A stretch of DNA of 32,000 nucleotides from contig NC_014729.1 of NCBI RefSeq assembly GCF_000172995.2, positions 390,001 to 422,000 on the forward strand, in the 5' to 3' direction. Under the pieces are notes generated by a model, which ran no database searches, was not told the DNA's origin, and worked only from the letters and a program-made list of their open reading frames with translations. Shown here in pieces: positions 1-25,036 of the stretch. The translations under genes were made by a program, and so were the position numbers. Position 1 is the first letter of the stretch, and each line of letters begins with the position of its first letter. The DNA comes from Halogeometricum borinquense DSM 11551 (GTDB taxonomy: Archaea; Halobacteriota; Halobacteria; Halobacteriales; Haloferacaceae).

Positions 1-200
1 GATTCATTAACACCTGTTGAGACTGCGCTCTCTGCGAATACCACTTCGGTGTCTGCAGAGTGCGTCGTAAAAACGGGATGCTTCGGGGTCGTACGGAAGA
101 CAAAGCCTTCCGTGATGACGAGACATTCCGCGTCTCGAACCACTTGAACCTGAGGTGATTCACCGTACTCGACATCGTATTGGTGGCCTTGCTCAGGCAT
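1..200 (-). CDS. hypothetical protein; the C-terminal end runs off the left window edge. Visible N-terminus: MPEQGHQYDVEYGESPQVQVVRDAECLVITEGFVFRTTPKH...
   Basis: Hand translation of the minus strand from ATG (plus-strand cat at 198-200) stays open to position 1. It is absent from the ORF track because no stop lies in the window. It is on the same strand as the ankyrin gene and 122 nt downstream of it. No domain recognised. Confidence 0.3.
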   Translation of the reverse strand, partial: MPEQGHQYDVEYGESPQVQVVRDAECLVITEGFVFRTTPKHPVFTTHSADTEVVFAESAVSTGVNE

Positions 201-322
201 TTTCTCACCCCGTATTCGGTTTCCACATCGGTGTCTGTGGGTGTTCAACAGGATATGCGGTGATCGCCTTGTAGATACTGTCCGATGACTGGTATGAAGT
301 GTCTGTTTCTCAGTGGGAGCAT

Positions 323-796
323 TCAGTCAGTGAATATCTCAATGAGGGCTTGATCATCCCGGCGGCGGGCGATAGATCGGGGGGATTTTCCGGCGTCGTT
401 CTGATTCGCTGGATCTGCCCCGTGAGCAACAAGTGATTGAATTATGTCGTCTTTGGTCTCTTCGTTCACTACTGCACTCCATAACGGTTGATTACCGTAG
501 TCATCCGTTACTGTAACATCTGCTCCTTCACTAAGGAGAATCCTTACCATGTCTTCGTAACCCATCTCCAGCGCGTAATGGAGCGGTGTCTTCCCTTCTT
601 TACCTCTGTGGTTGATGTCGATATCTCGATCTATGAGTTCTTTCGCAAACTCATCTTGTCCATATGCTGCTGCGGCATGGAGCAGATTATCGCCGGACTC
701 GTCTAATGTATTTATATCGACGGTATTGATTAAATCCCGAAATTTCTCTTCATCGCCTTCTTCAATGCTGTAGAATAGGAGTGTCGTCTCATCCAT
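323..796 (-). CDS. ankyrin-repeat protein (157 aa); candidate immunity protein for the adjacent toxin
   Basis: ATG start. Clear ANK consensus repeats: GDNLLHAAAAYGQDEFAKELIDRDIDIN, GKTPLHYALEMGYEDMVRILLSEGADVT and GNQPLWSAV...IIQSLVAHGADPA. The start lies 2 nt after the stop of ORF 799..1662. Confidence 0.9.
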   Translation of the reverse strand: MDETTLLFYSIEEGDEEKFRDLINTVDINTLDESGDNLLHAAAAYGQDEFAKELIDRDIDINHRGKEGKTPLHYALEMGYEDMVRILLSEGADVTVTDDYGNQPLWSAVVNEETKDDIIQSLVAHGADPANQNDAGKSPRSIARRRDDQALIEIFTD

Positions 797-798
797 CG

Positions 799-1662
799 TT
801 ATTCATCTCCCTCGTACTTTCTACTGCGGTTGGCTTTTGGCTTTTCCGGCCGATAGTTATCCGGGTCCCGGTACCTGTTGAGAAATTCTTCTTTCGAAAT
901 TAGTCCGCTTATGTACTTTTGATGCAATTTACGGTATTCCCTCCGGGGCTTGTGTCCCATATCCCACTGTCCCTCACGTGGTTCGCCTCGATCCCATTCG
1001 AGCCGTTCACCGGTATTTGGATCATAAACGTTCCCGTCTTCGTCTTTTGCCTGTTCCCACACTGCTTCGACTTGTCCATCGGCGTAATCTGGCCGGTTGT
1101 TGGCATATGGTTTGTCCTTCTCCTCACCACTTCTCGGCTGTTTGTACCTCTCTTCTAATTCGCTGAATTTTCCCTTTTCATCACGCTTCTGCTTTTCCCA
1201 CTGTTTGATCCTTTGAACGTGTATTCCTGCATTCGCCATGCGATGCACGCCGATTTTCCCACCTTGCATCACGCGCTGGGCGGTTTCTTCGGCTTCCCGC
1301 TCTAAGCGTGGGTCAGGATCAATCTCTAACTCGCCCGCTTGGGGGAGCATCGACACCGCGCCACCCGTTTGCTGGCGCACGTGTGCTAACTCGTGGGCGA
1401 GAATATGCTGGCCTTCAGCACTCGATGGATCGTACTCGCCGTGGTTGAACGCGATGTGATTGCCGACGGTAAACGCGCGGGCGTTGATGTCTTCACAGGC
1501 TTTCGCGGCCGATGGACCCGTGTGAATACGCACGTCGCCGAGGGTGTCACCCATCCGATCTTCCATCGCGCGCTGAATTGAGGTATTGAGACGCTGGTCA
1601 GACAGCACTGAAATATTACGAGCCGTCTCGTTAGAAAAGGCTCGTCTGTTGAGTAAACGCAC
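799..1662 (-). CDS. DUF4157 (zincin-like HExxH) domain protein with a GH-E-like HNH/EndoVII nuclease C-terminus; N-terminally truncated paralogue of 7257..8510
   Basis: DUF4157 signature: IQRAMEDRMGDTLGDVRIHTGPSAAKACEDINARAFTVGNHIAFNHGEY...QHILAHELAHVRQQ. C-terminal motif: DPNTGERLEW..WDMGHKPRREYRKLHQKYISGLISKEEFLNRYRDPDNYRPEKPKANRSRKYE. The first codon at 1660-1662 is GTG, not ATG. The first ATG (1564-1566) would cut into the domain, so the start is uncertain. Confidence 0.8.
   Translation of the reverse strand: MRLLNRRAFSNETARNISVLSDQRLNTSIQRAMEDRMGDTLGDVRIHTGPSAAKACEDINARAFTVGNHIAFNHGEYDPSSAEGQHILAHELAHVRQQTGGAVSMLPQAGELEIDPDPRLEREAEETAQRVMQGGKIGVHRMANAGIHVQRIKQWEKQKRDEKGKFSELEERYKQPRSGEEKDKPYANNRPDYADGQVEAVWEQAKDEDGNVYDPNTGERLEWDRGEPREGQWDMGHKPRREYRKLHQKYISGLISKEEFLNRYRDPDNYRPEKPKANRSRKYEGDE
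1237..1576. repeat. 340-nt block homologous to 7701..8040 (copy 1)
   Basis: Hand alignment at a constant offset of 6464 nt gives 304/340 identical positions with no gaps. Identity falls to roughly half within about 30 nt beyond either end. Confidence 0.9.
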
Positions 1663-2593
1663 CGCTTTCGGGGTTGTGGAACTCCGGATAGAAGTCGATA
1701 TAGCTGTAGCAGTGGGCCGCCATGAACTGTCCTAATCCCAGCACACGGAACTCCTCGGGCGGAACGACGCCCATCTCGATAAACACATCTCGAATCTGGC
1801 ACCGAAGGTAGTGATCCATGAACGACTGGAAGTATTCCAGGCTCTCTAGCTCAATCGGGAGCAGTTCGATAACCGTATCCGGCTCTCTGGAGGTCGGTTC
1901 GAGATGGTCATCGGCGGCCACTAAGTCCGTCCCTTCGGGGTGTTTGACGTACAATTGGGACGTGTTGTCGATATAGACCGCGTCTGAGAGGTCGATCTGT
2001 TCCTCTATCGCCCGCGTGGCGAACTCACCCGTAAACTCACCCCACTGTTTGATCTCCTCCGTGGAAAGATCGGCTATCGCCACGTCAGCCGCTGACTCCG
2101 CGGTGATATCGAGGTCATGCTTGGCGGCGAGTTCGTCACCGAGGTCGGTTTCCAGCGGGTCAATCCCGAGATAGACGTTCTGCGCGTAAATCGGCGGGGT
2201 CGTTGCTTGCGGTGGGACGTCATAGACCGGCTCGGCGCTCCCGTCGGTTTCGGAGGAGAACTGCTGGTAGAGGTCACCGAAGTGCGTCTCGAACGTCTCC
2301 AAATCCATCTGGGCGATTGCCTGCCGGACCGCGTCGATTCTGACGGGATTCTCCGGAGCCGAGACCGTATCGTATCCCCGCTTCAGGTATACGTAGTACT
2401 TGGCGTACTTGCGGGCCTGATTGACGTATTCATTACCTTCGTCCGTCCGCTTTGAGGAGTCATCCGGGTACCCGTCCTGTTCGTGGTAGGTAATCTCGCC
2501 GCTCTCGTTCGTCTCGATCAAGTGCTCAACATCATTGTTATCGATGACACTGAGCCCAATCCGCTCAGATTCTCCCGTGATGATTGCGTCCAT
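1631..2593 (-). CDS. hypothetical acidic protein (320 aa), no recognised domain
   Basis: ATG start, long ORF, acidic halophile-like composition, and core-like GC (a spot count of one line gave 62%). Its 3' end overlaps the GTG-started toxin ORF by 32 nt. Confidence 0.6.
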   Translation of the reverse strand: MDAIITGESERIGLSVIDNNDVEHLIETNESGEITYHEQDGYPDDSSKRTDEGNEYVNQARKYAKYYVYLKRGYDTVSAPENPVRIDAVRQAIAQMDLETFETHFGDLYQQFSSETDGSAEPVYDVPPQATTPPIYAQNVYLGIDPLETDLGDELAAKHDLDITAESAADVAIADLSTEEIKQWGEFTGEFATRAIEEQIDLSDAVYIDNTSQLYVKHPEGTDLVAADDHLEPTSREPDTVIELLPIELESLEYFQSFMDHYLRCQIRDVFIEMGVVPPEEFRVLGLGQFMAAHCYSYIDFYPEFHNPESGAFTQQTSLF

Positions 2594-2727
2594 TTATCTC
2601 ACCTCCGACTCTTTGCGTCACCAGTTGAGTCTCCCGACCCAGTTCCAACGGTTGCATCTTTGGCGGCCTGCCTGATATCGTCGAGCTACGCGTCTGGTGA
2701 GTCCATTTTAGCGAGTTGGTTCGGGAG

Positions 2728-3138
2728 ATGATCCGACAGCAGACAGAATTCGACTGTGAGAAAAAACAAGTCCTTGGACGGTCAGGGAACCACTACGAGG
2801 TTGATGCTGTCCCGCTAATTAAGGGCCGACAGAATGAGCGATACCTTCATCTCATCAATATCAAAGACACCATCGTCGCCAATACCAACAACAGTACGTG
2901 GTACAACCGTGTTGATCGCGCCCATGCGCGGATGGACGAAGTGGTTGGGGACTTCCTCCCGAAGTCGCTCGTGTTAGGTGAATTCAGTGATGTCGGTGAC
3001 CGGTCATTCAGGGCTGAGTTTGCGTCAATTGGGGCCCGAATCATCGATATTGAGTCGTTCGGGACCTTGATCGAAGAAATCGAATTATTTGCAGACAATC
3101 CAGCCCTGTTTACTCAGCGTCCACCTATTGACAGATAG
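2728..3138 (+). CDS. hypothetical protein (136 aa); weak resemblance to a PD-(D/E)xK / restriction-endonuclease-like core
   Basis: The track ORF begins at TTG 2716 and the first ATG is at 2728. The motif GRSGNHYEVDAV ... LHLINIKD is reminiscent of nuclease-fold cores but not diagnostic. The 3' end overlaps the convergent ORF 3085..3639 by 54 nt. Confidence 0.4.
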   Translation: MIRQQTEFDCEKKQVLGRSGNHYEVDAVPLIKGRQNERYLHLINIKDTIVANTNNSTWYNRVDRAHARMDEVVGDFLPKSLVLGEFSDVGDRSFRAEFASIGARIIDIESFGTLIEEIELFADNPALFTQRPPIDR

Positions 3139-3639
3139 TCGCCCGTGAACATCCTGCACGCAGCGCGAAGTGGTTCTGAAGTCCCCGTCTGGGGCGGTCG
3201 CGAACGTGAGTGCCATATCGCGATCACACTGCATGATGTTAACCTCTAACAGCTCGTTTTGATACGTTTCGACCACGTAGACGGTCGTCTGACTTTCGTT
3301 CCAGTCGTCGACGAACTGCGTACTGTTGCCATCCGAGACTGTCGACACACGGTCCGAACATACCGGGTCGTGGAGAGTGACGTTAGTGTAGTTCGCCTCG
3401 GTCTGTAGTTCCTCTATCTCAACGAGCGTTTGATGTCCATCTCTTGTGGTAACGTCGAAGCGAAGTTTCTCAGGACTCTCTTGAGCACTTTGGAAGGCCG
3501 TGACCAAGTAGCTTGATTCTCGTTCGTTCTCGATAAGGATCTGTGTCTCATCGTCGGAGAGCAGTGTCGTGAAACCGACAACCAGTACGAGACTGGTCAA
3601 GAGACTGGTGAGAATCACTCGGCGTGAGGGCAGTTGCAT
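3085..3639 (-). CDS. secreted or membrane-anchored hypothetical protein with a Tat-like signal
   Basis: Internal ATG at 3637-3639 gives MQLPSRRVILTSLLTSLVLVVGFTTLL. This contains a twin-arginine-like SRRxxL motif followed by a hydrophobic helix. The remainder is acidic and Thr/Asn-rich. Confidence 0.55.
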   Translation of the reverse strand: MQLPSRRVILTSLLTSLVLVVGFTTLLSDDETQILIENERESSYLVTAFQSAQESPEKLRFDVTTRDGHQTLVEIEELQTEANYTNVTLHDPVCSDRVSTVSDGNSTQFVDDWNESQTTVYVVETYQNELLEVNIMQCDRDMALTFATAPDGDFRTTSRCVQDVHGRLSVNRWTLSKQGWIVCK

Positions 3640-3895
3640 CGGGTTAATTGCGTTCCCTCTCCCGGTATGCGTTTTGGGATGCAACGACGAAGCGACATAG
3701 TGAACTGAGACTCACTAGCGCACAGTTGCTGTCCTTGCACATAGGGAGAGAAACGTATATGAAATCCTGCCTAATCACGTCCAAGTCTGCTGAACGAGGG
3801 ACTCACTTACCGGCAGACTGCGTCGTCGGCCAGTGCTGAGGAGTCGTTAGCGGACGTCACTTATGTGTCAGTCTGAGTGACGGTAGGCTGGATGG

Positions 3896-4414
3896 TTAAC
3901 TACTATCATCTTCCAATACTGAGCGTGCCCGCTGGACGTAACTATTTGTGTCCCAACTTCGGGCGGTACTGATGTCGTCCAAGAGAGTACATGCCTCAGC
4001 GGGCATCAATTGTCCTGTTCGGACGAATACCGAAAGCAGTGTCGGCGTCGTCACAAGTCGTGTATCGACTAGTGACGCGTGAATCAGTCCCAGCGAGTTG
4101 AATTCATCACAGAGGAAGAGGGCGGCGTCGATATCGTTTGCGAGTGTCACGGCGGCGTTCTCGCCATCATCGAGTGGGAACTCAACATCCAAATCTACTG
4201 ACCGAACCAGCAGCTCGGCAGTCTGGTCAAGGACGACGGTTGCGGCGTGTCCATGCGCATCATCATACGAGGCAATCTCTCGGAGTTCTTCAATAACCAC
4301 CTTTGGGACGGACACATCATAGCCGGTGAGACAGCGTGAGAGGGGATTCGGGTCGGAGTCGGAAACGATGCCCAGACTCACGAGTGCGGATGTGTCTGCG
4401 ACTAGCGCTGCCAT
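3896..4414 (-). CDS. PIN-domain (VapC-like) protein, putative toxin
   Basis: N-terminal MAALVADTSALVSL (first PIN Asp), followed by VIEELRE, DDGENAAVTLA and LCDEFN acidic motifs in the usual PIN order. The ATG directly abuts the stop of the upstream RHH gene (TAG-ATG). Confidence 0.75.
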   Translation of the reverse strand: MAALVADTSALVSLGIVSDSDPNPLSRCLTGYDVSVPKVVIEELREIASYDDAHGHAATVVLDQTAELLVRSVDLDVEFPLDDGENAAVTLANDIDAALFLCDEFNSLGLIHASLVDTRLVTTPTLLSVFVRTGQLMPAEACTLLDDISTARSWDTNSYVQRARSVLEDDSS

Positions 4415-4717
4415 CTATACGTCGGCGACCTCGTCGACGAAACTGTCGTCCAACTGCTGTTTCAACACCCGGAGGTTTGCCGCCTCTTCGGCGCCGACGA
4501 GCGCTTTGAGTTGCTCGAACGTGATCTCGTCGTCGTAATAGGCGGCGGCAATCTCCTGGACGAGTGCGTCGTCGTGAGCGGCGTCTTGGAGGTATTCCCG
4601 AAGCGCGGTCACGAGGACGTCTGTTCGGTCTTCCCCGAGGACGGCGGCCAGTGCGTCGGCCCGGTCGATAAGCCGATTGGGGGCCCGAAACTGCACTCGC
4701 TTCTTATCTGTACTCAT
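4415..4717 (-). CDS. ribbon-helix-helix (CopG/VapB-like) antitoxin
   Basis: Starting at ATG 4715-4717 gives MSTDKKRVQFRAPNRLIDRADALAAVLGEDRTDVLVTALREYL, a typical RHH beta-strand plus two helices. The longer track ORF starts at a GTG (4777) and adds a non-acidic leader. Confidence 0.75.
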   Translation of the reverse strand: MSTDKKRVQFRAPNRLIDRADALAAVLGEDRTDVLVTALREYLQDAAHDDALVQEIAAAYYDDEITFEQLKALVGAEEAANLRVLKQQLDDSFVDEVADV

Positions 4718-4719
4718 GA

Positions 4720-4773
4720 TGTGTACAATGTGAGCCAGCACACTTAGTCGTTTTCGTGTGTACAATGTGAGCC
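4720..4773. promoter_or_regulatory. two exact 17-nt direct repeats (TGTGTACAATGTGAGCC), candidate operator of the RHH-PIN operon
   Basis: The copies are at 4720-4736 and 4757-4773, a 37-nt period. Each contains the palindrome TGTACA. The first copy begins 3 nt upstream of the antitoxin ATG. Confidence 0.5.
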
Positions 4774-4960
4774 TCACTAGGTCTCTATCGATTACTCGCT
4801 GCTCAACGCAGTCGATAGCGAGTCGTGTTCGTCAGCAAGGACTTCAACAAGACCAAAGAAACGGAGAGTCGGCGGTCCAATCACCGTGGAGCACTGGATG
4901 AATCACGTCCGGGTCCGCACCAGCCGAGTCGGTTTTGCACACGTCAATTCGTCGCCCGTG

Positions 4961-5000
4961 TGCAGTTTCACGGAAGCGACGATCTCTACGTGAAACTGCA
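4961..5000. repeat. perfect 12-bp inverted repeat with a 16-nt spacer (strong hairpin)
   Basis: TGCAGTTTCACG (4961-4972) pairs with CGTGAAACTGCA (4989-5000). It lies about 45 nt past the stop of the minus-strand ORF 5044..5433. Confidence 0.6.
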
Positions 5001-5043
5001 AGCATGTCAATTGCCGACAGCTACCTTCGGTGTAACCGCTTCC

Positions 5044-5433
5044 TTAGACTTCACGTGCCCACTCAAGTCCCTCGTCGAGAGTATCGAAGTCAGCAATTTC
5101 TGCCTGTGGAACCTTCATCCGAGATTTGACTGCCATTCCGGTGATTCCCTCTGCAACGAATCCAACCTTCTCAACACCAGCGTATTTGCAGTTGCCAGAC
5201 CACTCTTCAGCCATATACTCTTGTGTCTCCGCTGAGAGATTTGTCTTATCGCCAAAGATTGCTAAGGTAGCTGTAATATCTTCTTTACTCGCCCGTTCAC
5301 GATAATGCTGGCTGACTGCTTCTAGCGTTTCATCTGCGAATCCTGCCCAGCCGCGGATATCCCAGACACCGACATTATCGCGTTTTTGGAATTCCCATTC
5401 GTACTCGTCAGAATTCGGTAGTTTCGATCCCAT
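5044..5433 (-). CDS. hypothetical protein (129 aa); possibly a SpoIIAA/STAS-like fold
   Basis: Internal ATG at 5431-5433 gives MGSKLPNSDEYEWEF.... The N-terminal extension in the track ORF is Cys-rich, non-acidic and lies in AT-rich DNA. The C-terminal pattern GVEKVGFVAEG..MAVKSRMKV...IADFDTLDEGLEWA resembles DUF3478/STAS-like proteins only loosely. Confidence 0.5.
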   Translation of the reverse strand: MGSKLPNSDEYEWEFQKRDNVGVWDIRGWAGFADETLEAVSQHYRERASKEDITATLAIFGDKTNLSAETQEYMAEEWSGNCKYAGVEKVGFVAEGITGMAVKSRMKVPQAEIADFDTLDEGLEWAREV

Positions 5434-5692
5434 GATACATAGCGAGTTAATAACTAGATCCGAATATATCTGCCCGTACCTGCAGAGACAATCAGATATC
5501 GTAACCGTTCTATAATCCTTTCTGGTTATAGATTCAACATTTGTTGGGTGATTATTTACAGCGGTAGCGAGGCGAAAGCCCATCCCCTTAGGGGCAGAAG
5601 GAAGCCGACAACTGGGGACCTATCCACACTCGTAGCCACGCTGGGGTTGGATGTTTGCATAACAACACCCTCGTTGAGGGAAACCAAGCTAC

Positions 5693-6148
5693 TCAGTCAA
5701 CCTGTTCGTTGGCCCAGTTGTTTATGTAGTGTTGTTTCTTCTCCTGTCTGTGCCACAGCATTAGGATGTCCTCGTCAGCGTTCTCGTCTTCCCGGCTTGC
5801 GGCCCATTTGTTCGGGTCGAAGTCTGGTCTGTCCTGCCACCACGCATCATAGGTAGTGGTAAATGTATTACTGTTGTCATAGATTCGGAAACTGGTCTTT
5901 CCGTTCTCATAGTCATGGTTGTAGGTTACTTCTGTGCCCGGACTGTACAGGTCCCAAGTTGTCCCGTCGATTTGGACGAGTATCGTATTTTTTTCTGAAT
6001 CTGGATAGATAGCAACCCAGACACCGTCTACTTCGCTGCAAACACCCGAGATGTCTTGGTCTTCTATATCTGTGAATTCATCACCCACTCCCTCAGAGAG
6101 GTCGAACTGAGTGTATTCCACGAACCGGTCGAAGTTCCTCAGTTTCAT
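5693..6148 (-). CDS. hypothetical protein (151 aa), intact member of a tandem paralogue pair; candidate orphan immunity protein
   Basis: The track start at 6160 is TTG. The ATG at 6146-6148 gives MKLRNFDRFVEYTQFD, which aligns with MYLKQFNRRSEYTCFD of the neighbour. Shared motifs are WxAxYPD, TWDxY and TTYDAWW. Confidence 0.6.
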   Translation of the reverse strand: MKLRNFDRFVEYTQFDLSEGVGDEFTDIEDQDISGVCSEVDGVWVAIYPDSEKNTILVQIDGTTWDLYSPGTEVTYNHDYENGKTSFRIYDNSNTFTTTYDAWWQDRPDFDPNKWAASREDENADEDILMLWHRQEKKQHYINNWANEQVD

Positions 6149-6180
6149 TCTCACCGCCAACGATCACCTAGATGAATGCA

Positions 6181-6648
6181 CTACCGCTGTAGGGCTTCGG
6201 ACCACGGTTCGATCCAATTGTTCTTGTCCTCCTCATTAATCGAGAGGTATTTTATGTACCCGAAGAAGTCTTTCATCTCGTTGTCTTGTTCTTCGAAGGT
6301 GAGCCATTCACTTGGCTTTAGATGAGGGACTTCTTTCCACCAGGCATCATACGTCGTCTCGAAACTGTTGTCATTATCTTCGATTTTGAAGTAGGTCTTG
6401 TCCTGGTCGTACTTGTGCTCGTAGGTTATCTTACTGTCCTCGCCGTAGATATCCCAAGTAACTCAGTCAATGTGAACGATTAAACTCTCACCATCCGCAT
6501 CTGGGTATACAGCAATCCATCGGTTGTCTATGTTTTTACAGAACCCCGATGTCGCTTCGTCTTCGATTTCTTGAAACTCGCTAACGCTATCGTCCGAAGG
6601 ATCGAAACAGGTGTATTCCGACCGTCGGTTGAACTGTTTCAAGTACAT
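6181..6648 (-). pseudogene. paralogue of 5693..6148 interrupted by one in-frame TGA
   Basis: Hand translation continues in the same frame past TGA (plus-strand tca at 6463-6465): ...LIVHID*VTWDIYGEDSKITYEHKYDQDKTYFKIEDNDNSFETTYDAWWKEVPH...ALQR, with the final stop at 6181-6183. The stop sits where the paralogue has Gly (QIDGTTWD). Confidence 0.7.
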
Positions 6649-6737
6649 TTTATGAACTAGTCGGGTCCTGTCTGCTGTCCAGCGTCCGAACGACCATTAT
6701 AGAATATCGATCGACGCCCTCGTCGTGATCAAACTGC

Positions 6738-7250
6738 CTACTCGTCAACGTAGGGGTCCAACAGCTCCACCACGTCCGTTATCCCATGCTTTTTCACCCA
6801 CTCCAGCACAGATTCCCCGGACTCATCTGTCGCCGTCGGATCAGCACCGTGTTCAAGGAGCAGTTTCACGAACTTCCGATCACTTCGGCCCCTCGTAACC
6901 GCCACCGAGAGCGGACATCTCCCCTTGTTATCGAAGATATTCGGGTCAGCACCCGCCTCAAGCAATACCTCGGCTGTGTCATAGCTTTCAACTTCTATCG
7001 CATGAAGCAACGCTGTGTGACCTCCATTATTTTGAGCATCCAGATCGATCCCCCGATCAATCAGCTCCCTCGCTATTTCTGGACGATCTGCACCCGCGGC
7101 CTTATGCAAAAGGGTACTTCCATTGTCTGACCGATGAGTCAGGTCAGCGTCATCAATGAGCTCATCGAACTCCTCTGTATTGCCCTGGATAATCGCCGAT
7201 TCAATGTCGGTACTAATGTACAGATCGTCGGGTCCTTTGTCTTCACTCAT
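6738..7250 (-). CDS. ankyrin-repeat protein (170 aa); candidate immunity protein
   Basis: ANK repeats: GSTLLHKAAGADRPEIARELIDRGIDLD, GGHTALLHAIEVESYDTAEVLLEAGADPN, GRCPLSVAVTRGRSDRKFVKLLLEHGADPT and GESVLEW. The ATG lies 6 nt after the toxin stop. Confidence 0.9.
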   Translation of the reverse strand: MSEDKGPDDLYISTDIESAIIQGNTEEFDELIDDADLTHRSDNGSTLLHKAAGADRPEIARELIDRGIDLDAQNNGGHTALLHAIEVESYDTAEVLLEAGADPNIFDNKGRCPLSVAVTRGRSDRKFVKLLLEHGADPTATDESGESVLEWVKKHGITDVVELLDPYVDE

Positions 7251-7256
7251 AGTTTT

Positions 7257-8510
7257 TCACTCCAGTGGTCCCCATTTTTCTGCCCAGTATTCGCCTTCTT
7301 GCTCATGCTCCCCGGAACTGCTCGCGCGATGTGATTCTGGCTGATAGTGGTCCGGATTTCTGTACTCTGCTAAGAACTCTTCACGGGTAATAATTCCTCT
7401 CAGATAGTACTCGACCAGATACCAGTACTCTCGCCTGGGTTTATGCCCCATACACCATTCATCACGATCCAGCGGTACCTCATCGACGGCACAAAACACA
7501 ACACCATTAGGACCTTTCGCCCTGTTCCACACCTCTTCCCGCTGCCCTGGTTCATACCTTGGACGTTGGTCGTGTCCATAGGGCTTCTCCTCACGCTTTG
7601 TTCGCTTCTTGGCTATCTCTTCCTTCAGTGGGCCAAATTCCCCATTCGGGCGTCGTTTTTGATCCTCGTGATGACGCTGGACATGAACCTCGGAGTGCTC
7701 CATGCGATACACGCCGATTTTCCCACCTTGCATCACGCGCTGGGCGGTTTCTTCGGCTTCCCGTTCCAAGCGCGGGTCCGGGTCAATCTCTAACTCGCCC
7801 TCTTGGGGGAGCATCGACACGGTACCACCTGTTTGCTGTCTCACGTGTGCTAACTCGTGGGCGAGAATATGCTGGCCTTCCGCCGAACTTGGGTGGTACT
7901 CGCCGTGATTGAACGCAACATGATTCCCAACGGTAAACGCGCGGGCGTTGATGTCCTCACAGGCTTTCGCAGCCGATGGACCCGTGTGAATCCGGACGTC
8001 ACCGAGGTTGTCACCCATCCGGTCTTCCATCACGCGCTGAATCGAAGCGTTCAGCGACTGTCCCGGCGAGGAAATCACGTCCCGAACCGAATCCGGGACC
8101 TGTGTGTCGCCAGCTTTCGACGCCTCGTGGTGCGCGCCGCGACTACGCTGGACAGATTTAGCGTTCCGGCGTTCGATGTCCTTTGGGACTTCTGCGGGGC
8201 GTTCTTTCTGACGCTGGCGGAACGCGCGCATGTCGCGTGGCTTGCCTATCGTATCGACGGTCATTCCCTCGTCGGCCCATTCTCGGACTTGACCTGCGCC
8301 GTGTTTCTTGGCCAGTCGCTGAATCTTCGTATCCAGCCCGTCCATGTAGATCTCTACCCCGAAGCGAGATTCACACTCTTGGGGCGTTAGCGAACCACCG
8401 CCACCACGACTCCGATTCCGATTCGAGCCTCCCGTCAACTCTTGAATAGACGGAACGGACGAGGACTCTTTGCTCGGAGTCGTCCGCTCGTTCGCAGACC
8501 GAAATCTCAT
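7257..8510 (-). CDS. full-length DUF4157 (HExxH) protein with a GH-E-like HNH/EndoVII nuclease C-terminus (417 aa); candidate polymorphic toxin
   Basis: ATG start. It has a unique N-terminal region of about 165 aa with no signal peptide. The DUF4157 core is IQRVMEDRMGDNLGDVRIHTG...HILAHELAHVRQQ. The C-terminal motif is WCMGHKPRREYWYLVEYYLRGIITREEFLAEYRNPDHYQPE. Confidence 0.85.
   Translation of the reverse strand: MRFRSANERTTPSKESSSVPSIQELTGGSNRNRSRGGGGSLTPQECESRFGVEIYMDGLDTKIQRLAKKHGAGQVREWADEGMTVDTIGKPRDMRAFRQRQKERPAEVPKDIERRNAKSVQRSRGAHHEASKAGDTQVPDSVRDVISSPGQSLNASIQRVMEDRMGDNLGDVRIHTGPSAAKACEDINARAFTVGNHVAFNHGEYHPSSAEGQHILAHELAHVRQQTGGTVSMLPQEGELEIDPDPRLEREAEETAQRVMQGGKIGVYRMEHSEVHVQRHHEDQKRRPNGEFGPLKEEIAKKRTKREEKPYGHDQRPRYEPGQREEVWNRAKGPNGVVFCAVDEVPLDRDEWCMGHKPRREYWYLVEYYLRGIITREEFLAEYRNPDHYQPESHRASSSGEHEQEGEYWAEKWGPLE
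7701..8040. repeat. 340-nt block homologous to 1237..1576 (copy 2)
   Basis: Same hand alignment as copy 1: 304/340 identical, gap-free, with sharp loss of identity at both borders. Confidence 0.9.
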
Positions 8511-8525
8511 TCTTACTGCAAACTT

Positions 8526-8546
8526 GATAGCTATCCTATATAATTA
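8526..8546 (-). promoter_or_regulatory. candidate promoter of the toxin gene: 10-bp palindrome GATAGCTATC plus a TATA-like element
   Basis: GATAGCTATC is at 8526-8535. The AT-rich run TATATAATTA at 8537-8546 lies 27-36 nt upstream of the ATG at 8510, which fits a leaderless haloarchaeal transcript. Confidence 0.3.
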
Positions 8547-16252: not shown

Positions 16253-17419
16253 TCAGTCAGCGCCGCGTGTGAGTCGGAGGAACGCCCGCGTCGGCACGCG
16301 CGTTTCCACTCGACTCGGCGGACGACCCGCGCCGTTCGTCTCTTTGACGGGCACGCGTTCGACGATGCCCGATTCGGCGAATTCGTAGAGATAGCGCGTG
16401 ATGGTGCTCTCAGACAGAGATGCCGCGGACGCGATTGTTGACGCGGCGCGGCCGACTGACGACCGGTCCGTCGCGTCGAGTGCTACGAGACGGCGGAGGA
16501 CGGTCAGGCGGTTCTCAGAAAGCGTGAGGACGCGACCTAAAGCGATGCACGGACGCGGGACGGACTCCATCCCGGCGTCGAGGTGGTCGTCTTCGATCAC
16601 GCCGCTGTCGTCGTCGAGTGCGATGTCAACCGCGCCGAGAAGTGCCGCGAGTGCGTCGTGTGCGTCGCCGTCGGCCCATGCCGCGAGTCGTCGGAGCTGC
16701 TGATGCGTCGTCGCGTTTCTCGTTAGCCCGGTCGAAACGCGAGCGGTCAACAGGTCTGTGAGTTCAGCGCGGTGGTATGGCTCGACAGTGACCGTTCTCG
16801 TCGCTCGCGGATCGGGGAGTACCTCTTCGGGGTCCGTTCGCCCGACAGCAACCCACGAGGTTCGGTGACCGAGACTCTCTAGTTCCCCGGCGAACGATGC
16901 CAACCGGTCGGTTCCGTTCTCGTCAGCGTGGTCCATCGCCACTACGAGAATACGCCCGCCGCGGAGATGACGACTGACGCGAGTCCGGAGATCAGTCGTC
17001 GAGAGTCCACGTTGTGGGATGGATTCGCTCGTCATCGCATCAAGAATCGTATGGTAAAACTCGAACTCGCTCGTCGCTTCGCGGAGGTCCACGTACGCGA
17101 ACGACCGCGTGTCGGCACTCCCACCGCGCGTCGTCGTCACGATTGAATCTTCCGGCGACGAAAGCAGTCGGGTGAACTGCGAGAACAGCGCCGAGACGAC
17201 GGCTGACTTTCCCGATCCGGCGGGACCGTGAACGTAGACGTTCTCCGGCGTTCGGTGTTCGAAAACCGGCTCGAGTCGGTCGAGGAGTCGTTCGATGGTC
17301 GGTCCTCGCCCCGTCGGCTCCGGGGAGTGCCAGACCGGACTCAACGAGGCCTCTTCGAGGACTAACTGTCGTCTATCACCGCGTCGTTTGCGTTGAAGGA
17401 TTCGTTCTTCGAGGTTCAT
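16253..17419 (-). CDS. Orc1/Cdc6-like AAA+ ATPase paralogue with a C-terminal winged helix
   Basis: PTGRGPTIERLLDRLEPVF precedes Walker A VHGPAGSGKSA. Walker B is ILVVAMDHADE. The C-terminal wHTH is ESTITRYLYEFAESGIVERV. Confidence 0.7.
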   Translation of the reverse strand: MNLEERILQRKRRGDRRQLVLEEASLSPVWHSPEPTGRGPTIERLLDRLEPVFEHRTPENVYVHGPAGSGKSAVVSALFSQFTRLLSSPEDSIVTTTRGGSADTRSFAYVDLREATSEFEFYHTILDAMTSESIPQRGLSTTDLRTRVSRHLRGGRILVVAMDHADENGTDRLASFAGELESLGHRTSWVAVGRTDPEEVLPDPRATRTVTVEPYHRAELTDLLTARVSTGLTRNATTHQQLRRLAAWADGDAHDALAALLGAVDIALDDDSGVIEDDHLDAGMESVPRPCIALGRVLTLSENRLTVLRRLVALDATDRSSVGRAASTIASAASLSESTITRYLYEFAESGIVERVPVKETNGAGRPPSRVETRVPTRAFLRLTRGAD

Positions 17420-17492: not shown

Positions 17493-18563
17493 TTAGAGAG
17501 GGAGATACACCGAGGTGGGAATGACGCCTGCGAAGTAGAGCACTGCGATGAGAACCGTCACGAGGACGATTGCCATCGCCGGCGGGTCCACGTGGGTTCC
17601 GGAGTGCGAGTAGAAGATGCGCTGCGTGAGTTCACCGAGGAGACCGCTGAGCGCGCCGAAGACGCCAGCAGCCAGCAGGATGGCGATGGGACTCCCGACT
17701 GTGGCGGCCGCGACGGCCGCGCCGCTTGCTCCCATCAGGGTGATGTGGTGAGTCACGGGAATCTTCTCGACGCCGAGGTTGAGGAACAGCAGGCTCATCG
17801 CCGAGATACCGTAGCCGAGGAAGAAGCTCCCCGTCTTCAGCCAGATGTAACCGCCGAGAATCCCACCGACGAGTCCGATCACGGTGACGCCGGACCACTT
17901 GTACTGGTGGGGAAGCCACGGCTCGGTCGCCGGTCTGACGGTTTCGACGCCGCCGTCAGTCGCCACGCGCTCTTCGCCACGCTCGAAGGGAGACATGTCG
18001 AGCAGACTGTTTCCGGCCGCGCTACCAATCAGTGGGTAGCTGAAGACGACGCGGGCGATCATTGCCGACAGGAACACCGTCAGCGCGATGGTGTCGGTCG
18101 GGAACCCGAGTCCGATAGCGATTTGATTGATGATCGCGCCGAGTCCGCCGAACAGGGCACCGACGGCGAGAATGTCGGGCTTCGTCCCGAAGGCGTAGGT
18201 AATCTCCTTCCCGAAGTGATAGCCCTCTTCGGGACCCATCTCGGGGTACTTTTTCCCTGCATAGGCACTCGCGGCAACACCGCCAGCGAAGGCGATGTGC
18301 GGGCCGGTGATGGCACCGAAGCCGATAACGCCAGTCAGGCCGGTGGCGACTTCGCCGCCGGGGATACCGCTGAGCGTAGCGAGGTTCCCTTCGAGAATCG
18401 CCAGTCCCTCTCCGAGGAACACCACGAAGCCGGTGAAGATGAACGCCGGGAGCGCACCGATGGCTGCCCCGAATGCCCCGCCTGCGAGGGCGGTGATGAA
18501 CAGGACCGCGAACGCTTCGGCACCCATATCGATGACCGGGAGTTGGAGCATGAGTTCGTTCAT
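17493..18563 (-). CDS. polytopic membrane protein coupled to glpK; candidate glycerol/metabolite transporter
   Basis: About 9-10 Gly/Ala-rich TM helices. The ATG lies 3 nt after the glpK stop. The position matches the putative facilitator gene that follows glpK in Haloferax volcanii (recalled from the literature). Confidence 0.7.
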   Translation of the reverse strand: MNELMLQLPVIDMGAEAFAVLFITALAGGAFGAAIGALPAFIFTGFVVFLGEGLAILEGNLATLSGIPGGEVATGLTGVIGFGAITGPHIAFAGGVAASAYAGKKYPEMGPEEGYHFGKEITYAFGTKPDILAVGALFGGLGAIINQIAIGLGFPTDTIALTVFLSAMIARVVFSYPLIGSAAGNSLLDMSPFERGEERVATDGGVETVRPATEPWLPHQYKWSGVTVIGLVGGILGGYIWLKTGSFFLGYGISAMSLLFLNLGVEKIPVTHHITLMGASGAAVAAATVGSPIAILLAAGVFGALSGLLGELTQRIFYSHSGTHVDPPAMAIVLVTVLIAVLYFAGVIPTSVYLPL

Positions 18564-21966: not shown

Positions 21967-22614
21967 ATGAGATTGGTCTGCCGTGAGGATTCAGTCGGTC
22001 ATACAGGTCGTCGTGGGCAGGTTGGTATCGGAACGCTCGTTGTTTTCATTGCGATGGTTCTGGTCGCCGCGCTCGCTGCTGGGGTGCTGATACATACGGC
22101 TTCCTTCCTGCAAGCCACCGCCGAAGACGCCGGGAAAGAGAGCATCGACCGCGTCGTCAACGGCGTTGAAGTCGTCACTACCGCCGGACACGTCACGGAC
22201 GGAGACGACGGGTCAGTGGACACGGTTCGTCTCTGGGTCCGACCTCGTCCCGCTGCTGGCGACATAAACGTCTCTCGGCTCACCGTCAAGTGGGTGGGCG
22301 AACAGGCTGGACAAAGTCTCACGTTCTCCGGCACAGATCCTGTTTCACCGTCCACCGCAAGTGACGCGCACACGACGTTCAACGCATCCGAGAGCATCGG
22401 TGACGGTGACAAGATACTCGAACAGGGCGAAGAATTCGTCCTCTACTTCAATGTCTCACAGATCGAGAGCGGTGACGCCGACCCGGCGAATCTGGCCCCT
22501 CTCCATCCCGGTGATCAGGCGACTACTGAGATTACCGTCGCTACGGGAAGTACTTCCGCCGCCTACCTTACGGTCCCTGACTACTCGGGTAACGCGACGT
22601 ACGTCCGACTCTAA
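21967..22614 (+). CDS. archaellin (archaeal flagellin domain) protein, isolated copy
   Basis: Class III signal and hydrophobic N-terminus: RRGQVGIGTLVVFIAMVLVAALAAGVLIHTASFLQ, followed by a beta-rich acidic domain. Confidence 0.8.
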   Translation: MRLVCREDSVGHTGRRGQVGIGTLVVFIAMVLVAALAAGVLIHTASFLQATAEDAGKESIDRVVNGVEVVTTAGHVTDGDDGSVDTVRLWVRPRPAAGDINVSRLTVKWVGEQAGQSLTFSGTDPVSPSTASDAHTTFNASESIGDGDKILEQGEEFVLYFNVSQIESGDADPANLAPLHPGDQATTEITVATGSTSAAYLTVPDYSGNATYVRL

Positions 22615-22617
22615 CGG

Positions 22618-22803
22618 TTACTCGAATTCGACACGACAGGTCGTTCCGGTCGCTAACCCCTCATGTTCGATGTGCGCCGCGAGACACCCGTACGTGCAGA
22701 ACGCACCCGTCTGCGTGCGCGTTCCGTCAACGAGTTCTTCCACGTACACTGGGGCGTGCGCCGTCACGTCGCATCCGCAGTAATCGCACGCTGTTTGACT
22801 CAT
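22618..22803 (-). CDS. small Cys-motif protein (61 aa), TRASH-like metal-binding module
   Basis: C-x2-C-x26-C-x3-C pattern (CDYC ... CTYGC). ATG start and acidic composition. It lies next to an Lrp-TRASH regulator on the same strand. Confidence 0.6.
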   Translation of the reverse strand: MSQTACDYCGCDVTAHAPVYVEELVDGTRTQTGAFCTYGCLAAHIEHEGLATGTTCRVEFE

Positions 22804-22894
22804 CGGTTCGGTCTACGGCGTCTACACTTACATCGTTGTCTCAGCAACAACCCGGTTACCGACTGATGCCGACTGCTCTTTGAATCCACCAAAA

Positions 22895-23488
22895 TTACTC
22901 CGCATCGGCGCTGAACCGCTCGTACTGTTCGCGGAACCGGGCGGCACACGACGGACAGCAAAAGTGGTACTGGTTTCCACCGATCCGGTCGCTCTCGCCT
23001 TCGCTCGTCACGGTGTTACCGCATTCGGCACAGGTGAGTGCAAACTCCGTCCCGCCAACGCTCGGCACCCACTCCATCTCCGAGACAATTGTCACGTCGT
23101 AATCAGTAACGCGTTTCAGATCAACCACCTCGTCGATACCCTCGCGGACGGCGTCCGAACGGAACCGTGCGGAGAACACCACGTCGCCCTCGACGGTGAC
23201 GAAGACGTGTTCGACTCCCTCTGACTCGCGTAGGTTGTCTGTAACTGCTGCAACTTCCGTTGACGGAAGGTCCAATCGGACGAGGACGGGGACGCCCGCA
23301 CGAAGTTGCGAGCGGTCGAGATCGAGGGTGAACCGTCTGATGACACCGGACTCGCGGAGTTTATCCACTCGGTCGGAGACCGCGGGTGGCGAGAGATCAA
23401 CTTGCTCAGCGATGTCGCTGAACGGTCGTCTCGCGTCTTCGGTGAGGAGTTCGAGTATCTGGAGGTCGGTCTCGTCCAACTCGCGCAT
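22895..23488 (-). CDS. Lrp/AsnC-family transcription regulator fused to a C-terminal TRASH metal-sensing domain
   Basis: The N-terminal HTH is LDETDLQILELLTEDARRPFSDIAEQVDLSPPAVSDRVDKLRESGVI. The C-terminus CAECGNTV...QYHFCCPSC matches C-x2-C-x20-C-x3-C. Confidence 0.85.
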   Translation of the reverse strand: MRELDETDLQILELLTEDARRPFSDIAEQVDLSPPAVSDRVDKLRESGVIRRFTLDLDRSQLRAGVPVLVRLDLPSTEVAAVTDNLRESEGVEHVFVTVEGDVVFSARFRSDAVREGIDEVVDLKRVTDYDVTIVSEMEWVPSVGGTEFALTCAECGNTVTSEGESDRIGGNQYHFCCPSCAARFREQYERFSADAE

Positions 23489-23731
23489 GCTGTCATCGTT
23501 GCCTCCTGGGTAGATGTGTTTTGCCCCTGACTAGCTCTAGATTATGCCGTTCGTTCGCTCCGAAAATTTGTTTTTGAAAGTATATCCTGGGCGGAATTAA
23601 TGTTAAACAAAAAACATATGGGTGGTAGGGATATCCGAGCGGCTGTTACACGGCTGCTACTGTCTCTATTCGGCACTCTATAACGAAGCGCATGGCTCGT
23701 CCTCGTAAGCGTAGAGGTCACCGAAACCACA

Positions 23732-25036
23732 ATGAAACGCCAACAGACAGTTATCCTCGTCGCCGTCGCCACTGTCGTCGCTGTCGGCGGTGGTGCAATC
23801 CTCTTTACCGACCAGGGCGGTGAAGCGGACGCCTCCACCGCGGCCAACGACGCGTCGGCGGCTGTCGGGGAATCGACGCCGACGGCGCAATCGAGCAATT
23901 CGAACAATCAGCAGACAGAGACATCTGGCGAGTCGGACAGTTCCGAATCGGGTGATGTAACGTCCGGTGCCGACGATAGCGATACCACGTCGTCGAGTTC
24001 CAACAGTACCGACGCCCAGTCCGTCGAACGCGCGAACGAACCACCGACGGCCGAAGCAGGGGCGAACAGAACTGTTCCCGAGTGGCTTCGCGTCCATTTC
24101 GACGCAACATCCTCTAGCGATCCCGACGGCAACGATGCCAACCTCACCTACGAGTGGACACAAATCGATGGTCCGGCGGTGGACATCGTCGATGCAGACA
24201 CTGCAAAGCCCAACATCCTCACGCCGGAGATTGTCTATCGGACCGACCTTACGTTCCAACTCACTGTCACCGACGAAGCGGGAGAGACGGCGACGGACAC
24301 AGTGACGATCACTGTCCGCCCGCCGGACCGAGACGACTCTGACGACGAGCAGACGGAATCTGACAACTCGACCGACGAGTCCGATAACTCCACCGACGAA
24401 TCGGATGACTCCGATTCAGAGCAACCGTCGGACCCGAACGACGACGCCGGTGACTCAGACGACGATTCTGATGATTCGAGCGACGACTCGGGCGATTCAG
24501 ATGACAGCGACTCCGGTGATTCGGATGACGACGCCGGTGATACGGAGACCACTCGCGACGACATCGCACAGGCGGTCTTCGACTCGAACTTCGACGGCCT
24601 AAACGCCGCGGATGCGGCCGTTGTCGAGGAATTCTACATGCGCCAACCTGACGGCGACTGGGACCTCTCGACGGTCCAGACCCGTGACGAACTCGCACAG
24701 GAGGAGTACGGGTCGGACTACGACGAACTCGGCTTCGATGCTCGCGTCGATGTACAGACGGCGTTCGACGCCCAGTTCGATGACACGGGCGGCGCACTCT
24801 CGAAAGACGAAATCTCGCAGGCCAAATGGGGCTACGACTTCGACGAGTTGAGTAACGAGTCCGCAGGTCAGATTACGGAACTGTACGACCGGCAACCGTG
24901 GGCTGACAGAGAGACCGAACACGTTCGCACCCGCGAGCAGTGGTCACAGCGCCTCTACGACTCCACGCTCTCAGATCTGACGCGCGACGCTCGACTCGAT
25001 GTCGAACGCCGGTACAACAACCAGTTCGACGACTAA
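23732..25036 (+). CDS. N-terminally anchored extracellular acidic protein with a PKD-like domain, a D/S-rich linker and four C-terminal repeats
   Basis: The N-terminal TM is VILVAVATVVAVGGGAILF. The PKD-like segment is ANRTVPEW..FDATSSSDPDGNDANLTYEWTQIDGPAV...LTFQLTVTDEAGETATDTVTITV. Residues about 198-272 are almost only D/S/E/G. The C-terminus carries repeats of about 40 aa. Confidence 0.75.
   Translation: MKRQQTVILVAVATVVAVGGGAILFTDQGGEADASTAANDASAAVGESTPTAQSSNSNNQQTETSGESDSSESGDVTSGADDSDTTSSSSNSTDAQSVERANEPPTAEAGANRTVPEWLRVHFDATSSSDPDGNDANLTYEWTQIDGPAVDIVDADTAKPNILTPEIVYRTDLTFQLTVTDEAGETATDTVTITVRPPDRDDSDDEQTESDNSTDESDNSTDESDDSDSEQPSDPNDDAGDSDDDSDDSSDDSGDSDDSDSGDSDDDAGDTETTRDDIAQAVFDSNFDGLNAADAAVVEEFYMRQPDGDWDLSTVQTRDELAQEEYGSDYDELGFDARVDVQTAFDAQFDDTGGALSKDEISQAKWGYDFDELSNESAGQITELYDRQPWADRETEHVRTREQWSQRLYDSTLSDLTRDARLDVERRYNNQFDD

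Follow-up and report, generated by a model that had tools for sequence, protein, structure and literature searches.

toxA-ankA of Halogeometricum borinquense, a probable DUF4157/GH-E toxin and ankyrin immunity pair of its T6SS-like contractile injection system

Analyzing a 32,000-nucleotide stretch of the Halogeometricum borinquense DSM 11551 chromosome (contig NC_014729.1, positions 390,001 to 422,000; this whole stretch is called the window below), we found on its reverse strand two neighbouring genes, toxA (7257..8510) and ankA (6738..7250), which likely constitute a polymorphic toxin-immunity pair in the effector repertoire of this archaeon's contractile injection system (CIS), which resembles a type VI secretion system (T6SS). 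toxA encodes a protein of 417 amino acids (aa) made up of a leader, a DUF4157 domain and a C-terminal GH-E nuclease tip; ankA encodes an acidic ankyrin-repeat protein of 170 aa (isoelectric point (pI) 4.3; ADQ66022.1), the predicted cognate immunity protein. A toxin-immunity pair had already been proposed in a preliminary description of this DNA, and the computational tests available (domain content, variable tips, and an ankyrin gene behind 13 of 13 comparable toxin genes) support that proposal. A second module of the same kind, toxB-ankB at 323-1662 (reverse strand), is missing from that description and was recovered by a Pfam scan of the open reading frames (ORFs) of the window.

ADQ66023.1 / WP_013440440.1 from H. 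borinquense DSM 11551 matches the toxA protein with 100% identity; going by accession order, toxA would be approximately Hbor_04190 and ankA approximately Hbor_04180. The two ORFs are separated by a spacer of 6 nt (AAAACT) between the toxA stop codon and ankA, just as first described. Both domains that had been proposed for toxA are borne out by profile searches with Pfam: eCIS_core/DUF4157 (PF13699) at residues 153-229 (104 bits, E 4.8e-30; cutoff 22) and GH-E (PF14410) at residues 335-403 (90.9 bits, E 7.9e-26; cutoff 25), the latter confirming the suspected toxin domain of HNH type. The expected lack of a transmembrane segment was confirmed as well, as no hydrophobic segment was found in toxA (top 19-residue Kyte-Doolittle score 0.38), and the protein appears to be Sec/Tat-independent. 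Upstream of toxA, direct sequence reading revealed a TATA-like element, TAATTATATA (8537..8546, reverse strand), centred ~31 nt before the ATG. It is a candidate archaeal promoter, and its position fits a near-leaderless haloarchaeal transcript as well as the start codon of the 417-aa ORF. The 66 nt preceding the ATG are also kept in the toxA-type locus of strain CP048739. A scan for sigma-70 promoters and terminators gave no matches above chance, this being a bacterial model that is not applicable to archaea.

The N-terminal two thirds of toxA connect it to proteins of known behaviour. The first ~165 residues had been regarded as unique, which does not hold: the leader (residues 1-152; 8055..8510, reverse strand) is 65-98% identical in paralogues, and an exhaustive search of 1.84e9 proteins with these residues returned 191 clusters, in which the segment is N-terminal every time. 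In the AlphaFold2 (AF2) model it starts with a disordered part rich in Ser, Gly and Asn (residues 1-39); residues 43-102 form a small helical domain, and residues 105-137 are basic and again disordered. All 51 leader-bearing proteins that were sampled contain DUF4157, and the tips behind it include LysM, lysozyme, M23, OmpA and lipase-like domains as well as GH-E. Given the paralogue identity and the constant coupling to DUF4157, the leader can be seen as the conserved part that serves trafficking in a haloarchaeal subfamily of DUF4157 proteins, and it is a candidate loading/recognition module, i.e. a candidate loading signal of the CIS; its invariable tie to DUF4157 is an incremental novelty of the present analysis. 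The DUF4157 core (also eCIS_core or PVC-metallopeptidase; residues 153-229, 7824..8054, reverse strand) follows, with an HExxH motif (H218, E219, H222) that is invariant among 16 homologues, and then a conserved linker (residues 230-279, 7674..7823, reverse strand) which ends in an invariant VHVQR (Q278 and R279 are invariant among the same 16 homologues). In the literature, roles in loading, release and as a chaperone have been proposed for DUF4157.

In DSM 11551 this conserved N-terminal part recurs in at least 10 paralogues, joined to unrelated C-terminal tips. Compared segment by segment, residues 1-279 of toxA have an identity of 92-98% with Hbor_38900, of 92-94% with Hbor_01880 and of 65-87% with Hbor_02990; in the linker the identity to the paralogues still amounts to 74-94%, and past residue 279 it drops to 16-20%. 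Judged from this drop, the HVQR junction is the boundary between the conserved and the variable part of toxA.

Hbor_01880, Hbor_02990, Hbor_07690, Hbor_38720 as well as Hbor_38900 are DUF4157 proteins whose secretion needs an intact CIS sheath (PMC11566945). H. borinquense kills Haloferax volcanii by contact via a membrane-anchored T6SS-like CIS encoded on pHBOR03; two of the five, Hbor_02990 and Hbor_38900, proved toxic in Haloferax volcanii, each being rescued by the gene downstream of it (PMC11566945). Attachment to the spike has been postulated by Zachs et al. 2024 (PMC11566945). The N-terminus of toxA is of the DUF4157-containing type found in these CIS-secreted proteins (segment identity 65-98%). 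The earlier suggestion of contractile-injection cargo is thus upheld insofar as secreted paralogues share the leader, but not as regards the extracellular mode (eCIS) that had been in view, since the CIS of this organism is T6SS-like and membrane-anchored. Indeed, that toxA travels on an extracellular particle set free by the cell, in place of a system anchored to the cell and dependent on contact, appears extremely improbable to us: in the literature DUF4157 marks the eCIS-associated toxins of bacteria, but the H. borinquense CIS was seen bound to the cytoplasmic membrane in cryo-tomography and killing needs cell contact (PMC11566945).

The variable tip of toxA (residues 280-417; 7260..7673, reverse strand) comprises, by Pfam and alignment, a pre-toxin stretch, the GH-E His-Me-finger domain (residues 335-403, nt 7302-7508) and a YWxxKWGxLE tail. 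Tox-GH-E has been defined by the motif residues GH, E, N and E (Zhang et al. 2012, PMC3482391). In our alignment of 16 haloarchaeal GH-E-type homologues W352, G355, H356, E361, Y362, Y389, E392 and E403 are invariant, and the catalytic candidates of the toxA tip are G355-H356, E361, H388 and E392. The AF2 model of the tip alone is confident (predicted local distance difference test (pLDDT) 83.5, predicted template modelling score (pTM) 0.69), and a Foldseek search with it places HNH nucleases on top (GeoCas9 HNH, Gme HNH, Cap5), though below significance. A sequence search gave zero matches in the PDB.

Some further features of the tip are worth recording. The YWxxKWGxLE tail (window 7260-7300, residues 404-417) is conserved past the end of the Pfam GH-E model; in the alignment of homologues toxA-type tips have it and toxB-type tips lack it. 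Just before the GH motif, the subclade that toxA forms with P0011 and P0032 shows a shorter loop and two cysteines (C-x13-WC; toxA residues 339-353, window ~7450-7500), the other GH-E homologues having a longer loop and no cysteines at this place. Archaeal GH-E members from H. borinquense were already included in a 2017 census of His-Me-finger proteins.

It is also conceivable, but in our view highly improbable, that the activity of toxA resides in DUF4157 as a zincin-like metallopeptidase and that GH-E is a degenerate or nucleic-acid-binding appendage. The invariant HExxH would suit such a role, as would a weak Peptidase_M91 match in toxA (Pfam, E 0.029); with the full-length AF2 model, which is poor (pLDDT 61.5), the top Foldseek match is the minimal zincin abylysin, though it is non-significant, and some PVC-metallopeptidases may act as toxins (Zhang et al. 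2012, PMC3482391). On the other hand, the GH-E motif residues are all conserved and the tip is modelled with confidence. Moreover, toxA and toxB share 93.5% identity in the DUF4157 core and 48% in the GH-E domain, yet ankA and ankB are only 33% identical; as DUF4157 is constant while the tips vary, the specificity of immunity must map to the tip. The toxicity of the eCIS toxin Cgo1, as cited in PMC11297309, is likewise independent of its metalloprotease motif.

As had been stated, the ankA protein consists entirely of ankyrin repeats: it matches all Pfam Ank families (Ank_2 with E 1.7e-22). An ankyrin gene lies directly 3' of 13/13 examined DUF4157-GH-E genes (both modules of the window and those of the loci L001-L003, L009, L011-L014 and L037-L039), so that the expected gene neighbourhood, a small gene following the toxin gene, is found in all of them. 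In a wider metagenomic sample GH-E tips are paired with either Ank or Imm33. The pairing extends to other delivery systems: an Ank-like gene is also located behind a GH-E toxin with a WXG100/PT-TG leader of the type VII secretion system (T7SS; L022), and the cassette probably also follows rearrangement hotspot (Rhs) leaders, although the case at hand (L033, RHS leader) is weaker, with a GH-E match of E 2.9e-6 by a custom profile only and an Ank-like match of 4.4e-5. We regard a GH-E/Ank pairing that seems universal across delivery systems as an incremental novelty. The divergence of GH-E and that of Ank are correlated (rho 0.72, Mantel p ~2e-4), and Imm-ank is a recognised immunity class of Tox-GH-E (Zhang et al. 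2012, PMC3482391).

Instead of conferring immunity, ankA might be delivered along with the toxin as an effector in its own right, or might act as an adaptor or chaperone in loading the machine with the toxin, and we consider this unlikely. Such roles have a basis in the literature, as the ankyrin-repeat eCIS protein EAT2 of Geller et al. 2021, with DUF4157 genes upstream, is itself antibacterial, and chaperone-like roles near DUF4157 are discussed by Danov et al. 2024. However, Ank goes with the GH-E tip under DUF4157, WXG100/T7SS and probably Rhs delivery; that it tracks the tip across delivery systems fits a tip-specific immunity and not a machine-specific loading. Leaderless orphan GH-E fragments (in L009, and toxB) also keep their own Ank, and the status of Imm-ank mentioned above speaks in the same direction.

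In the mechanism that we propose for a toxin-immunity pair of the CIS, toxA would be recruited to the plasmid-borne machine via its leader/DUF4157 part and would be injected into neighbouring haloarchaea on cell contact. There the GH-E tip would cleave DNA or RNA, H356 serving as the general base and H388 together with acidic residues holding a metal, while the acidic AnkA would bind and block the tip in the producer and its kin.

A number of observations weigh against this interpretation. toxA is not among the nine wild-type-enriched secretome proteins of Zachs et al. (PMC11566945), and neither toxA nor ankA is named in the main text or two supplements of that study; our literature search found no later work on toxA/ankA. 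Under laboratory conditions the protein may fail to be expressed or to be secreted. The 32-kb window contains no gene for a sheath, tube, baseplate or spike, and the toxA locus is chromosomal; this lack of linkage to the CIS cluster is not disqualifying, since the genes of the secreted Hbor_01880, Hbor_02990 and Hbor_07690 are chromosomal too. As regards the tip, its structural matches to HNH nucleases are non-significant (best E 0.9), and the 'N' column of the family motif holds His388 in toxA (Asn in toxB); such an H/N alternation is usual where HNH folds have their metal ligand. The nature of the target is a further point: the likeness to YqcG-CT that had been noticed holds in that YqcG-CT is a GH-E (PF14410) member, but this protein, the sole characterised GH-E member cited, is tabulated as an RNase (PMC9990079), so that DNA as the target of toxA is unproven and the DNase activity assumed earlier is not supported. 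Finally, linkage alone could account for the co-variation of GH-E and Ank.

The missing secretome signal may also be read as a sign that the toxin stays inside the cell; toxA-ankA would then be a toxin-antitoxin or addiction module at work in the cytoplasm of its own host, keeping the island stable or aborting infection by viruses. The location within a low-GC, strain-variable island and the absence of an export signal from toxA would agree with this. We nevertheless find it quite unlikely, because residues 1-279 of toxA are the leader and DUF4157 part of five CIS-secreted proteins, and a conserved trafficking-type N-terminus of 279 residues has no role in classical toxin-antitoxin systems; besides, GH-E and Ank cassettes are elsewhere attached to secreted T7SS-type and probably Rhs toxins. 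An effector of the CIS together with its immunity protein remains our preferred reading of toxA-ankA.

The second module consists of toxB (Hbor_04090; 799..1662, reverse strand), a 5'-truncated DUF4157 and GH-E gene without leader (by Pfam, DUF4157 core at 1360-1590 and GH-E at 811-1038, reverse strand, the latter with 99.9 bits), and ankB (323..796, reverse strand), which encodes a 157-aa ankyrin protein that Pfam and its position mark as the predicted immunity for the toxB tip. ankB has 57% identity to the Ank behind a toxB-like toxin of Haloferax sp. S1W. At the DNA level the only homology between the toxA and toxB modules is a 349-nt direct repeat covering DUF4157 core and linker (upper copy 7700..8045, reverse strand, lower copy 1236-1581; 89.4% identity by blastn), which is a possible recombination substrate. 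The homology of toxB to toxA begins at 1629, right past the stop of the ORF 1631-2593.

Comparison with strain CP048739 places these modules in context. At the orthologous site CP048739 has the same flanks (halocyanin and beta-CASP among them) and between them a toxB-type gene with leader plus an ankB-type gene, and nothing more; its toxA-ankA module is located ~73 kb away from this toxB-type site in another context. Window 8576-6187 aligns with the toxA-type locus of CP048739 (identity 99.5% in the tip, 99.8% in ankA, 95.6% in the leader and 92.6% in the DUF4157 part), window 6186-1598 (~4.6 kb) matches neither CP048739 locus, and window 1597-1 aligns with the toxB-type site. The DNA homology of toxA to the toxB-type locus stops at window 7678. 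As toxA-ankA occupies different chromosomal sites in the two strains, it can move about within the species. One might picture a simple insertion of 6.08 kb that has the DUF4157 repeat on either side and swaps the tip only, but the segment-wise comparison speaks against this: the whole of toxA, including the leader and 66 nt upstream, matches the other CP048739 locus, which is why we dropped this explanation.

Going by these alignments, the toxA module has displaced toxB in DSM 11551 and left it 5'-truncated, while the comparison does not fix the direction of the event; toxB-ankB is, by its gene structure, a displaced orphan toxin cassette. We tentatively suggest, as a possibility that we rate less likely than not, that the haloarchaeal leader of ~150 residues and DUF4157 are the loading determinant of the T6SS-like machine, that cassettes swap by recombination within the core up to HVQR, and that toxB-ankB is a silent reserve which can be reactivated via the 349-nt repeat. 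If true, the two strain states would be natural snapshots of an archaeal counterpart to the orphan switching of contact-dependent growth inhibition (CDI) and Rhs systems. In any case the strain comparison is a concrete, testable case of toxin-cassette displacement in an archaeon, and a displaced orphan module with strain-level evidence is an incremental novelty.

Orphan or displaced arrays like that of the window also occur in L007, L009 and L001. In a metagenomic locus (L009, 996-3965) there comes, behind a full-length DUF4157-GH-E gene and its Ank, a GH-E fragment of 87 aa that also has an Ank to itself, and this full-plus-orphan layout matches that of toxA and toxB in the window. In Haloferax sp. 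S1W (L001, 7266-10484) a poly-immunity array lies downstream of the toxB-like toxin; it contains Ank, SUKH/SMI1, two further Ank-like genes, DUF7957, Colicin_immun and scattered short DUF4157 remnants.

Between the two modules extends a strain-specific low-GC filler (1598..6186, reverse strand) defined by the strain comparison and made up of small acidic ORFs without family and o1631 (1631..2593, reverse strand). The latter is a 320-aa acidic gene of orphan immunity type that belongs to no Pfam family; homologues are located directly downstream of DUF4157 toxins in L004, L005, L006, L007 (three copies) and L008. These loci stem from Haloferax and Natrinema, the tips of their toxins are Gly/Ala-rich and glycine-zipper-like, and in the Natrinema locus L007 the o1631 homologues alternate with truncated DUF4157 fragments. 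Judged by this company, o1631 is probably an orphan that gives immunity to a class of membrane-active toxins; no remnant of a Gly/Ala-rich tip was found for it in the window. We also considered o1631 as a frameshifted N-terminus of toxB, which was ruled out as it has no similarity to toxA and its own homologues are found downstream of other toxins.

The other filler ORFs (5693-6160, 5044-5583, 4415-4777, 3896-4414 and 3085-3684, all reverse strand) have no Pfam matches and pI values of 4.0-4.9. A disrupted small gene of the o5693 type (6199..6660, reverse strand) was recovered by tblastn (41% identity to o5693 over 154 aa); only a 61-aa ORF (6463-6648) of this pseudogene is still open, and it lies within the block common to the toxA-type locus L039. 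Short matches related to the o5693 pair trail the toxA-type module in CP048739 (L039 12034-13974). Possibly o5693 and its disrupted paralogue are further orphan immunity genes. The GC content of window 1-8500 is low (0.48-0.55 vs ~0.61 elsewhere); tRNA genes are absent from the whole window, and no integrases were found among the ORFs scanned with Pfam.

Outside the island, a 356-aa ORF (17493-18563, reverse strand) shows a weak match to an RTX N-terminal domain (E 1.7e-4); it adjoins an Orc1/Cdc6-type gene (16253-17419), and its counterpart in another strain is annotated DUF7973. On the forward strand (21967-25036) an archaeal flagellin/pilin-type gene (21967-22614) is located near a PKD-domain protein (23732-25036); these are surface-structure genes, unrelated to toxA.

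Taken together, toxA-ankA is a further member of a family whose catalogue dates from 2012 and whose function was established in H. borinquense in 2024. It leaves the established picture unchanged and mainly flags the pair for experimenters; at the same time, the only archaeal system of contact-dependent killing that has been characterised by experiment gains with it a predicted nuclease effector and a predicted ankyrin antidote, and none of the effectors of this system has been assigned an enzymatic activity so far.

The closest relatives are the secreted DUF4157 effectors of H. borinquense, which are like toxA in organism, in the N-terminal 279 residues, in the small downstream gene and in having no Sec/Tat signal; their tips, by contrast, are unrelated to that of toxA (16-20% identity), and Zachs et al. 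2024 assign neither a GH-E tip nor an ankyrin partner to any of the proteins that they tested (PMC11566945). The architecture itself has been recorded before: Zhang et al. 2012 tabulate Tox-GH-E with PVC (Photorhabdus virulence cassette) secretion, PVC-metallopeptidase (=DUF4157), Imm-ank and euryarchaeota, which is exactly that of toxA-ankA, and give H. borinquense as an archaeal case in which several toxins of this kind occur (PMC3482391). The preliminary description had taken the combination of DUF4157, GH-E and ankyrin for unstudied; in view of this table (PMC3482391) and of the family having been tested in H. borinquense in 2024 (PMC11566945) that opinion has to be abandoned. The 2012 work is a catalogue only, however, and the haloarchaeal leader, the orphan module and the strain rearrangement are not described there (PMC3482391). 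YqcG-CT/YqcF of Bacillus subtilis shares the tip family PF14410 with toxA, but YqcG-CT (LXG) has bacterial T7SS delivery and is listed as an RNase, unlike the CIS setting of toxA (PMC9990079).

The behaviour of the two modules can be compared with that of CDI (CdiA-CT/CdiI) and Rhs systems. Orphan cassettes of these systems are, like toxB, 5'-truncated, keep a conserved stretch (349 nt with 89% identity here) and their own immunity gene, and are located downstream of the full-length gene. They also share with toxA a sharp junction motif between the conserved and the variable part: VENN or PxxxxDPxGL in CDI/Rhs, HVQR in toxA. They differ from toxA in their delivery machine and conserved N-terminus. 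Recombinational reactivation is, for toxA/toxB, only a possibility, and here, unlike in CDI/Rhs, entire modules together with their leader change site as well.

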